DNA from: a virus
Taxonomy: Duplodnaviria; Caudoviricetes
DNA: 64,000 nt
IMG/VR virus record: IMGVR_UViG_3300029288_000080
Span: 1 to 64,000 of that record
Direction: 5' to 3' (one strand)
Shown here piece by piece: positions 25,474-63,646 of this stretch. The position numbers were made by a program, and so were the translations under genes. How positions within the stretch are numbered: position 1 is the stretch's first letter; every line of letters starts with the position of its first letter. The notes beneath the pieces were generated by a model. It was not told the origin of the DNA. It ran no database searches and was given only the letters and a program-made list of their open reading frames with translations.

Positions 25474-26208
25474 TTGATGCCAAGAACCACCACCTACAGC
25501 AAGGTTGCCGGTGTTCCGGTAGCGTTGTATGGCTACAACTATGCCGACGATTATATGGTGAGCCAACACGCTGACTGGCTCAGTGCAGCCACTGACGCGC
25601 TGGGTCAGTACCGTGCTAGGAGCAAGGACTTTACCTGGCTACACTGTGGCCACTTTAGGTTGATCATTTTGAACTTTGAGCATCTTGGTGGTGGAGGTAA
25701 ACGGGGAACAAACCAGGGTGGTTGGGTCGAGATCTTCCTCGACGCCCATAGAACAGACTCAACCCAAATCGTCCACACCCTGGCCCATGAGTACGCCCAC
25801 CCGGTGTACAAACGAGCATTGAATCACGCCAAGGCGACCTGGGCCGATTTCTGTACTGCCACCGTTGCGCTGGACCTCATGAGACTACTACAGCTGTGGC
25901 CGGTAGAGACGCAGTACTTATGGGAGTCAAGCCCAGACCTTGCAACGGTAGATCCAGAGTTGTACGCTCAAGTGGAGAGCACGGGATTTTCGCCGGACTA
26001 CGTGGACTGGTACAAAACCGCTACGAGGCATGACGTTGAAGCCATGGTCACGGCCCCACAAGTTCCGGCTAACCCTATAACCGGCTATGCCGTAACGTCA
26101 CCAGAGGAGGCGTTCTGTGAAGCCGCTGCCCTGTGGGTCACCCATGGCGAGGCCACACTGCCGGCGCGAGTGCTACAACAGGTCAAATTTGTGCTAGGTA
26201 CGGTTTAG
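25474..26208 (+). CDS. zincin-like metallopeptidase domain protein
   Basis: HEYAH (HExxH) and downstream YAVTSPEEAFCEA. Confidence 0.7.
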   Translation: MMPRTTTYSKVAGVPVALYGYNYADDYMVSQHADWLSAATDALGQYRARSKDFTWLHCGHFRLIILNFEHLGGGGKRGTNQGGWVEIFLDAHRTDSTQIVHTLAHEYAHPVYKRALNHAKATWADFCTATVALDLMRLLQLWPVETQYLWESSPDLATVDPELYAQVESTGFSPDYVDWYKTATRHDVEAMVTAPQVPANPITGYAVTSPEEAFCEAAALWVTHGEATLPARVLQQVKFVLGTV

Positions 26209-26492
26209 TCGGTGGGCCGCTGTGGAACGTGAAGAAACAGCGAGATCTTAGCCATGGAGACCACGTAAGGCAAGCCCTCGATAGCAATGAGGTCGTTGAT
26301 AACCCCACACTCCATCTTGGCCACTTCTAACAAATGTTCTACATTCTCTAACCATGGTTCAGGTATTTCTTCAAGATAGGCATGCCAGAATCGGAGTAGT
26401 TCCCTGGTGCCGTTTACCTGTACGTCACGTTTGTCTTTGCTCGCTGTACACATACGGTATAAAGCACCAGCGTACTTGATGGTTTTGCTCAT
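26205..26492 (-). CDS. hypothetical protein with shared N-terminal motif
   Basis: MSKTIKYAGALYR; ATGA coupling. Confidence 0.65.
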   Translation of the reverse strand: MSKTIKYAGALYRMCTASKDKRDVQVNGTRELLRFWHAYLEEIPEPWLENVEHLLEVAKMECGVINDLIAIEGLPYVVSMAKISLFLHVPQRPTD

Positions 26493-27541
26493 TTTCCCAC
26501 CTGTTGCTTGGCCTCTCGGCTTCGTTGTCTGGGCAGGTCGTACAGGACTTTGCCCTGCTGGGTCCATAGTTGGTGCCGCCCCATCATCCTGACGACCAAC
26601 TCGCGGATCTTCACCATGGCGAAATCGTCGCGGCAATACAGTACATCCGCGATGGCGTCGTAGTCGGGGCTGCGGGCTTCGGTGTCGGGAACCCGGTGGA
26701 TCTTCACGACTACCAGGATCCGGTTGGCCCCGCCGTACCCCACAGGCTCTACGACGCGGATGCGGTTTTCTTCGCCGTTCAAGACCGGCTCGGTGGCTTC
26801 CCTGAGCTTTTGCAGCACCTGTTCGGCCGCCGCTCGATATTGTTTCCTCAAGGCCATCGGGGCCAGGTCACCCTGGTAGACTGAGATCCATTTGGATTTG
26901 TCTCCCACGAAACCACCCTGGACCTTTTTGGCCAACCAGTACTGGGCCTGGAGCATCAGGGCCCGGGCCAACAGGGGCTTGACCTGCTGGATCCGTTGCT
27001 TCGGCACTTTCCATCGGGCCCGGATGTTGTCCGCAATGTAGTAGCCCGCGATGATGTTCCAGTCAAATTCGTTTCGCCATAGACGTTCCAGAATCGTGCT
27101 GGTATTTTGTGTCGCTGCCGACCCGGCTCCCTGGACAGTTTCAAGATATTCACGCAAGTAGAAATCGTCGCCGCCCAGCAGAAAATCCTCGTCTATCCTG
27201 GTAGTCGGGCTTCTGGTTTCAACTTGGGCCGCGATCATGATGGAATCGCCACCCAGCGCCCTCATGGCCGACCCGGCGTACCCATAGGCGGTCCCGATAC
27301 TGTCGGTGAAGTAGACGCCGCCGTACGTTTCCATGTCGCGGGCGTCCCAGTCAATCCCGTGGGTTTTGCTCAGTTCTTCGGCGGTCAGGTCAAAAACCCT
27401 TTTCTTGGGCTGGGGGTTCAGCCCTTCCTTGAGGATTTTCTTCAAAATAGTATCGTTAGGCCCCGAAGCGGTCCCGTGGTACATCACGGTTTTGGCGGCC
27501 TCGCGGTAGACAGCGCCATTAAACCTGATCATCTTGGCCAT
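26489..27541 (-). CDS. ADP-ribosyltransferase-fold (YHGT) protein with shared N-terminal motif
   Basis: MYHGT..ILKEGL..GGVYFTDSIGTAYGYA; paralogous to the 55947 domain. Confidence 0.7.
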   Translation of the reverse strand: MAKMIRFNGAVYREAAKTVMYHGTASGPNDTILKKILKEGLNPQPKKRVFDLTAEELSKTHGIDWDARDMETYGGVYFTDSIGTAYGYAGSAMRALGGDSIMIAAQVETRSPTTRIDEDFLLGGDDFYLREYLETVQGAGSAATQNTSTILERLWRNEFDWNIIAGYYIADNIRARWKVPKQRIQQVKPLLARALMLQAQYWLAKKVQGGFVGDKSKWISVYQGDLAPMALRKQYRAAAEQVLQKLREATEPVLNGEENRIRVVEPVGYGGANRILVVVKIHRVPDTEARSPDYDAIADVLYCRDDFAMVKIRELVVRMMGRHQLWTQQGKVLYDLPRQRSREAKQQVGK

Positions 27542-27547
27542 GGGTTT

Positions 27548-27934
27548 CTATCCTTTGGCCAAGTCGGCCAACCATGTCCCCATATGGACCTGGCGGTTCG
27601 GCATTCTGGACTTCAGGAACAGCCAGTGTTCCACGACCTTCAGGGCCAAGGTTTCATCGTCGTACCGGCCCATCATGACCCCGTTGGCCGCGATGCACCA
27701 CGCTGGGGACTTGCCTCGTCGGCATTGGCTGATCATTTTATCGGCGAGGTCAGCGGCTCGCTGGACAAACTCTTGCTTGGACATCTGGCCCAGTTCAACA
27801 AAATCCTGCTGGGTCAGGGTGGGGCCGGGCGGGTTGGCACGGGGCGCTGGGTAGAACCGGGGGCCTCGCGGTTCCTCGGGGGCCTGGAGGGCTTCGCGGT
27901 AGACGGCACCATTGTAGACCAGCATCCTGGACAT
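27548..27934 (-). CDS. hypothetical protein with shared N-terminal motif
   Basis: MSRMLVYNGAVYREA; AGGTG SD. Confidence 0.65.
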   Translation of the reverse strand: MSRMLVYNGAVYREALQAPEEPRGPRFYPAPRANPPGPTLTQQDFVELGQMSKQEFVQRAADLADKMISQCRRGKSPAWCIAANGVMMGRYDDETLALKVVEHWLFLKSRMPNRQVHMGTWLADLAKG

Positions 27935-27967
27935 GGTTTCACCTGGAAATGCAAACAATTCCGTTAT

Positions 27968-63019: not shown

Positions 63020-63029
63020 TTTATCCTAC

Positions 63030-63039
63030 ACGTTAATAT
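63030..63039 (+). promoter_or_regulatory. candidate late promoter ACGTTAATAT
   Basis: recurrent intergenic motif. Confidence 0.55.
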
Positions 63040-63044
63040 CTATC

Positions 63045-63359
63045 GTGGAAATAAAATTGCCGGACCAACTGGTTCGCGAGCAAGCCATCAGGGCTTCTCG
63101 TGAGTACCTCACCACGTTCGCCAAGATTGTCCAGCAGGTCAGGGAAGTCCTTGCTGATATTCAAGGCCCCGATGAACTTCGTCGATTTGGTGGAGAGTCG
63201 GGTGTCTTGGCCATGACGGCCGAGTCGGTTTTGTCAGAAACTCCATTCAGCGAACAAAATCAGGGTACCTGCCTTGCCTTTTGTTCACTGGCGTCGGTGA
63301 TCAGGCGCGATATTGCCGACGGCACCTTGGCCCAGGCGGTCAAAAAGGAAACAACATGA
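63045..63359 (+). CDS. hypothetical protein
   Basis: GTG just after the motif; ATGA coupling to next gene. Confidence 0.5.
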   Translation: MEIKLPDQLVREQAIRASREYLTTFAKIVQQVREVLADIQGPDELRRFGGESGVLAMTAESVLSETPFSEQNQGTCLAFCSLASVIRRDIADGTLAQAVKKETT

Positions 63360-63646
63360 ATAGAATTATTCGTCACGCTGGACATCTGTACCGGGAAGTC
63401 AAGACCGCTGATGCTGTCCCGGCGGAAGACCCTGTCGAGTTCATGGAGCAACTTGGCGAAAACTACGCCAAGGATTTGGCCCGCCAGGGTCTACGACCAT
63501 CCACCGGTGGCCAGCAGATGGATACTGACAGTTTCAACGCGTTCGAGAATCATTTTGACCGTGAAATGACCGATGAGGAGCACGACGCCTGGTTCACAGG
63601 ATTCAATCGTGCTGCCCAACGGTTGTTCAAAAACCGACATAAATAA
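63356..63646 (+). CDS. small acidic protein with shared N-terminal motif
   Basis: MNRIIRHAGHLYREVKTA; AAGGA SD. Confidence 0.65.
   Translation: MNRIIRHAGHLYREVKTADAVPAEDPVEFMEQLGENYAKDLARQGLRPSTGGQQMDTDSFNAFENHFDREMTDEEHDAWFTGFNRAAQRLFKNRHK

Follow-up and report, generated by a model that had tools for sequence, protein, structure and literature searches.

A short portable peptide on unrelated proteins of an uncultured phage, a candidate tag for loading the phage head

Why should several otherwise unrelated proteins of one phage carry nearly the same short peptide? The question is raised by the first 64 kb (hereafter the window, the whole stretch of DNA that was analysed) of the 177,603-bp virus record IMGVR_UViG_3300029288_000080, in which a first-pass annotation had noticed a common N-terminal motif and proposed it as a capsid-targeting signal. 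In this study, we report that the motif is an 11-residue tag, located at the start, the end or the domain joints of dozens of otherwise unrelated proteins in a clade of large uncultured phages, most of them encoded beside head-assembly genes. The tag is real, acts at the protein level, is portable between proteins, belongs to a particular lineage and is tied to head modules. Its best reading, on the basis of gene context, is that it loads proteins into the capsid, and we give this reading a probability of roughly 0.55.

The regular expression [ILM]-x-[YFH]-x-G-[AH]-x-Y-[RQ], derived from the consensus of the first-pass annotation, was searched against the six-frame translation of the whole genome. 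Six matches were obtained, where 40 second-order Markov simulations gave a mean expectation of 0.10, and all six were located 0-6 codons after an ATG and were followed by at least 60 open codons; in the simulated genomes, the number of N-terminal matches was zero. The six main peptides first described, at 26492 (-), 27541 (-), 27934 (-), 55947 (+), 60059 (+) and 63356 (+), translate as they had been written. Allowing Lys at the last position of the expression revealed a seventh copy beyond the window, in a gene at genome positions 68384-68668 (+), immediately 5' of the gene for the head maturation protease. The scan outside the window that had been proposed was extended to the one close relative (G001, described below), where the same expression matched four times, each match lying directly after an ATG.

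Not every detail of the original description survived. The gene at 52634, listed as a weak match, has a tag-profile score (Table 1) lying within genome noise, which reaches about 6 bits, and the stretch in question is conserved in its orthologue; the weak internal copy claimed ahead of the ADP-ribosyltransferase (ART) domain of the 57971/58031 gene gave no match with the tag profile. The copy at 55947 had been taken for the start of a protein, and is probably a domain joint inside the frame 55626-58034, since the frame is continuous, a RelE/ParE-like domain lies ahead of the copy and no Shine-Dalgarno sequence precedes it. A KTA/RTA/RRAA-like segment had also been described as often following the motif; an 'RTA-A-K'-like segment turned out to be a feature of the ART family, conserved at its start whether the tag is there or not, and does not belong to the tag in general.

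The consensus of the tag, as drawn from 53 different N-terminal copies in the present genome and its relatives, is [IL]-[RK]-[YF]-x-G-[AH]-[VLI]-Y-[RK]-x-A. The Tyr at position 8 was invariant in the first set of 35 instances, in which Gly at position 5 was present in 31, and Ala at position 11 was found in 38 of the 53. Pro is frequent two or three residues ahead of the tag, which in many instances is followed by an acidic residue and a linker rich in Pro and Ala. Instead of being hydrophobic, the peptide is basic and aromatic. An AlphaFold2 model of the 350-amino-acid ART, built from a 17-row alignment, placed residues 4-7 and 10-13 in two strands with a turn at Asn-Gly, and the confidence (predicted local distance difference test, pLDDT) of this hairpin was 57-73, compared with more than 90 in the core of the ART domain. 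On account of these strands and their lower pLDDT, the tag is read as a small, basic and aromatic beta-hairpin on a tether. The tag codons vary at synonymous positions and the DNA upstream of the copies is not conserved, and conservation is therefore at the level of the protein.

The proteins that carry the tag have little else in common. The claim that their bodies are unrelated was borne out, as the tagged proteins of this genome show no mutual BLAST similarity other than that between two ART paralogues; when the tag was removed, pairwise BLAST similarity was limited to those paralogues and one pair that matched through a second copy of the tag. Among the carriers, a family could be recognised for PARP-like ARTs, an ART-PolyVal domain (in a relative) and an AbiEii/DUF2204-like nucleotidyltransferase, to which a P-loop protein can be added as judged by eye. 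Searches of Pfam and PHROGs returned no family for any of the small tagged proteins, and a protein atlas search with the tag returned nothing usable.

Scans with the portal and capsid proteins identified a single real relative, together with fragments. This relative, G001 (IMGVR_UViG_3300029288_000143, 78 kb), has a portal protein 57% and a capsid protein 65% identical to those of the present genome, and about a dozen of its approximately 95 genes start with the tag, as determined by eye and by profile. The phage collection contained neither a DNA sequence matching the terminase nor a protein matching an ART homologue.

Profile scans of the relatives located further copies at C-termini, at the joints between domains and in tandem, and the tag is thus not the strictly N-terminal signal, on the model of phage T4, that had first been described. 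In G001, both ends of a 90-amino-acid protein encoded between the protease and capsid genes are tagged, a different protein carries the tag at its C-terminus and one gene contains both an N-terminal and an internal copy. Comparison of orthologues showed that they differ in the presence of the tag: a tagged protein encoded beside the G001 portal gene (h005) has an orthologue without the tag in the present genome, and a second (h064) corresponds to the head-module gene at genome position 71788, which has a basic leader in its place, the end of which aligns with the end of the tag. Among 19 database homologues of the ART family, about half are tagged at the start, and the remaining homologues begin with the ART domain and are tagged further on, either between domains or behind the last conserved one; two ART domains, each with a tag ahead of it, are present in one homologue. 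With tagged and untagged orthologues, varied positions and up to 14 unrelated tagged genes in one head module, the modularity of the tag is well supported.

One further locus of G001 was recorded in the course of these scans. A mini-ORF (open reading frame) of 17 codons at L009:12364-12417 (G001 32364-32417) consists of a start and a perfect tag, and stops at CCC-TGA. The +1 frame of the 342-amino-acid gene from G001 32392 is open across this stop, so that a +1 shift at CCC_TGA would give a tagged full-length protein. The mini-ORF could reflect programmed frameshifting, a pseudogene or an assembly error.

The head maturation protease next to the seventh copy is of the gp21 fold. Its model (pLDDT 86) had T4 gp21 as best match (5JBL, E 4e-5, probability 1.0), followed, weakly, by the cytomegalovirus protease, and His131 and Ser184 are invariant among 40 homologues. 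No Pfam model covers the family. The family also has a conserved cluster of three Cys between the catalytic Ser and the C-terminal strands, and many homologues are 600-1700 amino acids long and match in two or three stretches; these long homologues probably carry inteins or fusions.

To relate the tag to gene context, 80 viral loci around homologues of this protease were scanned with the tag profile. Tags were present in 14 of the 18 loci in which the protease is 50-70% identical, and an N-terminal tag was absent from 61 of the 62 distant loci (35-50% identity, approximately 1.2 Mb). The exception, L071 (39% protease identity, 64% G+C), has 14 consecutive small tagged genes at L071:5217-12653, which flank the protease gene between the portal and capsid genes; the encoded proteins are 90-169 amino acids long, have unrelated bodies and include no ART. 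Additionally, two more contigs, to which the ART family led, also code for this protease and contain many tags, in one case again beside the head genes. In the present genome, four of the seven copies lie within the portal-to-protease stretch, and the other three form a trio at 26-28 kb (26205-27934, -), far from the head genes. This survey is the strongest evidence tying the tag to head assembly, and it is evidence from context.

The loading reading can be set out as follows. The 11-residue hairpin and its flexible Pro/Ala-rich linker would act as a peptide that addresses proteins to the interior of the head during its assembly, or docks them there. Its carriers (ADP-ribosyltransferases, a nucleotidyltransferase, a P-loop enzyme, many small proteins and probably some core or scaffold proteins) would bind a repeated component of the prohead, be it the scaffold or core, the capsid lattice or the portal, and would be enclosed before the DNA is packaged; tandem and double-ended copies would suit binding to a repeated lattice. 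Next, the tag may be cut off by the T4-gp21-type protease, possibly on the C-terminal side of the conserved Ala, and the loaded enzymes would enter the host along with the DNA. The kinds of cargo, namely the ARTs, the ART-PolyVal protein, the nucleotidyltransferase and the portal-adjacent polyvalent fusions, look effector-like from their sequences and were counted in favour of loading. Docking and encapsidation are what we infer from this context, and cleavage and injection are further steps of the same inference, both unproven. The original proposal of head loading has the support of context, namely the clusters from portal to capsid or around the gp21-type protease, the confinement to one branch of the protease plus L071 and the promoter-like motif shared by the trio; its N-terminal restriction did not hold.

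A number of results weigh against the loading reading, and most heavily on cleavage, which is its weakest step. T4 gp21 cuts after Glu, at L/I-x-E. The tag terminates in [RK]-x-A, not in a motif of this type with Glu at P1, and the Glu motifs [LIV]-x-E and A-x-E are not enriched beside it (12 vs 7 and 8 vs 13 of 53). A conserved Arg-x-Ala, sought at the N-terminus of the capsid protein as independent support for such a cut site, was not found. A receptor was looked for by presence and absence across tag-bearing and tag-free loci, and no head protein was restricted to the former: the portal, an acidic protein, the protease and the capsid protein are common to all tag-bearing loci and are all present in tag-free loci as well, and three families that track the close clade were disqualified because they are missing from L071. 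Several tagged genes of G001 and G003 lie outside the head module, and the promoter-like motif is likewise found ahead of two HNH endonuclease genes. The proteases of the nearest isolated phages are less than 40% identical, and PaBG, the one of these phages that is in the locus set, has no tags. A more specific form of the loading reading, in which the peptide loads proteins irrespective of its position, the protease has shifted to an assemblin-like Ala at P1 and cuts at the end of the tag, and consequently the effector set can be read from sequence and the tag reused, is offered tentatively, as a possibility we would not expect to prevail.

Among the alternatives, the one that survives best holds that the tag is an assembly or processing leader of prohead core or scaffold parts that are later degraded or expelled, the enzymes being tagged otherwise or by descent. 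Many tagged proteins are indeed small, helical-looking, without a family and encoded between the protease and capsid genes; in both G000 and G001, the product of the post-protease gene has a weakly tag-like C-terminus; and on one pair of head-module orthologues the tag and a basic leader take each other's place. The same tag is, however, carried by clear enzymes (the ARTs, the nucleotidyltransferase and the P-loop protein) and by polyvalent fusions, and we regard this alternative as doubtful. It does not exclude the loading reading, since T4 routes both kinds of protein alike (PMC9026906).

It is unlikely, too, that the hairpin docks to a hub other than the capsid (a phage or host chaperone, a host target or another tagged protein) and assembles a cytoplasmic complex. 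Short docking motifs resemble the tag in occurring at either end and in tandem, some tagged genes are outside head modules and the presence/absence search yielded no receptor; against this stand the strong concentration of tags around the head protease gene and their confinement to one protease branch and L071. Much less probable is that the motif is no independent module but belongs to the ART domain family, as a part of its structure or a remnant of its evolution. Two of the seven copies here, and many in relatives, lie directly ahead of ART domains, as does each copy in the homologue with two such domains, but half of the ART family lacks an N-terminal tag, non-ART proteins make up most of the tagged set (and all 14 of L071) and the pLDDT of the hairpin is below that of the ART domain.

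A domain of similar appearance is DUF4278, which starts with M-x-L-x-Y-R-G-x-x-Y. It forms the N-terminal part of IF17, a cyanobacterial glutamine-synthetase inactivating factor (PMC6212724), and the tag is most improbably its distant relative, as the PF14105 model matched neither the genome, at E up to 10, nor the tagged proteins. Lastly, most copies lie 1-7 residues from a start codon, yet a nucleotide-level or translation-initiation element, or a classical secretion or degradation signal, can practically be dismissed, being contradicted by synonymous codon variation, unrelated upstream DNA, copies at C-termini, between domains and in tandem, and a peptide that is basic and aromatic and not hydrophobic.

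The features of the window and of the adjoining head module are listed in Table 1.

Table 1. Location of tagged genes, head-module genes and promoter-like motifs (window positions unless marked as genome)
Feature	Position	Strand	Remarks
Tagged small protein, 95 amino acids	26205..26492	-	Tag residues 5-15 = nucleotides 26448-26480; 15.8 bits (13.5, rebuilt profile); no Pfam or PHROG family
Tagged PARP/Tpt1-like ADP-ribosyltransferase, 350 amino acids	26489..27541	-	Tag residues 5-15 = nucleotides 27497-27529; weak fold matches to PARP1 and Tpt1
Tagged small protein, 128 amino acids	27548..27934	-	Tag nucleotides 27890-27922, then Pro-rich linker; 15.4 bits; no family found (Pfam, PHROGs)
Promoter-like ACGTTAAT heading three tagged genes	27970..27977	-	
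Same promoter-like motif before terminase-portal (packaging/head) operon	47289..47296	+	
Large terminase with LAGLIDADG intein	48887..52621	+	
Small Zn-ribbon protein, between terminase and portal	52634..53014	+	2.5 bits, not a tag by profile
Portal protein	53062..55335	+	phrog_16240, E 4e-75
Polyvalent protein: RelE/ParE-like, tag, PARP-like ART, long C-terminal part	55626..58034	+	Tag nucleotides 55950-55982, internal Met; paralogue of 26489-27541 gene (BLAST E 4e-15)
Polyvalent protein, GNAT + PARP-like ART + NUDIX	57971..60052	+	Internal weak tag unsupported
Tagged small protein, 148 amino acids	60059..60505	+	Tag nucleotides 60065-60097; 13.0 bits
Promoter-like ACGTTAAT	63030..63037	+	326 nucleotides upstream of next tagged gene
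Tagged small protein, 96 amino acids	63356..63646	+	Tag nucleotides 63368-63400; 16.9 bits
gp21-fold head maturation protease	genome 68710-69486 (L001:8710-9486)		phrog_18299, E 5e-49
Major head protein	genome 76309-77424		

Beyond the window, the order of genes is that of an acidic 503-amino-acid protein at genome 66797-68308, the seventh tagged gene, the protease and the major head protein. The genes located right after the protease in G000 (genome 69495-70514; L001:9495-10514) and in G001 (L008:8164-8907) are not alike by BLAST, and each closes with a weak hairpin that resembles the tag (2.3 bits in G000). Their products may be scaffold-like, with the same docking peptide in use at the C-terminus. 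The RelE/ParE-like toxin domain of the first polyvalent protein is in frame with the PARP-like ART, and the gene directly follows the small gene of the portal operon. In the relative L040, the portal match is split by approximately 1.4 kb, which may be compared with the intein-interrupted terminase of the present genome.

The motif that heads the trio, ACGTTAAT-N-T-N-TA, occurs 10 times in the genome, at window positions 12866, 14890 and 27970 (-) and 38890, 45723, 47289 and 63030 (+), and at genome positions 87420, 105914 and 132789. Nine of the 10 sites are outside the rough gene calls and 26-84 nucleotides before the start of a gene; the tenth, 63030, is inside a called ORF. The first-pass annotation had described the tagged genes as lying in operons headed by this motif, and it was indeed found ahead of the tagged trio, the terminase-portal operon and, at 63030, a further tagged gene. 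Its additional presence before the HNH endonuclease genes leaves its assignment to a 'late' class unproven. PHROGs gave no name for the genes behind most of the motifs.

If the loading reading is true, sequence alone could suffice to list the proteins brought into the cell by these uncultured phages, and such a list would comprise ADP-ribosyltransferases, a nucleotidyltransferase, toxin-like domains and many small proteins of no family. The tag would also offer a compact means, usable at either end, of packing foreign proteins into phage heads. In the libraries and literature searched, neither the hairpin motif, nor its use at either end and at joints, nor its restriction to a protease branch was found, and several known systems share some of its features.

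The cargo-loading peptides of encapsulins are short, terminal and joined by a flexible linker, and dock varied cargo inside a shell of the HK97 fold. They differ from the present tag in being usually C-terminal, in their consensus and in serving a bacterial compartment and not a virion. Cleavage sites of the herpesvirus assemblins have Tyr at P4, Ala at P1 and Ser at P1'. Tyr and Ala are spaced alike in Y-[RK]-x-A, with which the tag ends, and the protease encoded here is of the gp21/assemblin fold; this is a resemblance only, and the characterised phage members of the fold, unlike assemblin, cut after Glu. Should the gp21-fold protease of this phage cut after Ala, the known specificity of the family would be widened.

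Polyvalent proteins and effectors linked to portal or MuF proteins are expected to be packaged, according to Iyer et al. 2017 (PMC5512222), and a term search of that paper did not find the hairpin tag. The ART, GNAT, NUDIX and RelE-like fusions encoded directly after the portal (55626-58034, 57971-60052) resemble the polyvalent proteins as described there, whereas the domains of the present system are often single-domain genes, each of them tagged, and in fusions the tag is at the joints.

In phages SPN3US and phiKZ, propeptides of head and ejection proteins are removed by a gp21-like protease that cuts after Glu, at A-x-E (PMC10052503, PMC5694885). These are likewise large phages with a gp21-fold protease, and they process many proteins inside the head; their propeptides, however, are long, share no single motif and have Glu at P1, in contrast to the surroundings of the tag, where A-x-E is not enriched.

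The closest parallel is the capsid targeting sequence (CTS) of T4, found on the internal proteins IPI-III and Alt (Mullaney and Black 1996, reviewed in PMC9026906). Ten residues at the start of IPIII are enough to direct loading; the propeptides attach to the scaffolding core and are removed by gp21, and Alt is a packaged ADP-ribosyltransferase with propeptides at both ends (PMC9026906). In both systems, one short terminal peptide is found on otherwise unrelated proteins of one phage, a gp21-type head protease is encoded and an ADP-ribosyltransferase is among the carriers, and the double propeptides of Alt parallel the N- and C-terminal tags described here. The present tag has no sequence likeness to the T4 CTS; it is a basic, aromatic and, by prediction, beta-hairpin peptide with a linker, it is also used at domain joints and in tandem, and it ends in Arg/Lys-x-Ala and not in x-x-Glu. 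The principle has been known since the T4 CTS was described in 1996, and what this study adds is a well-delimited motif with a clear comparative signature.

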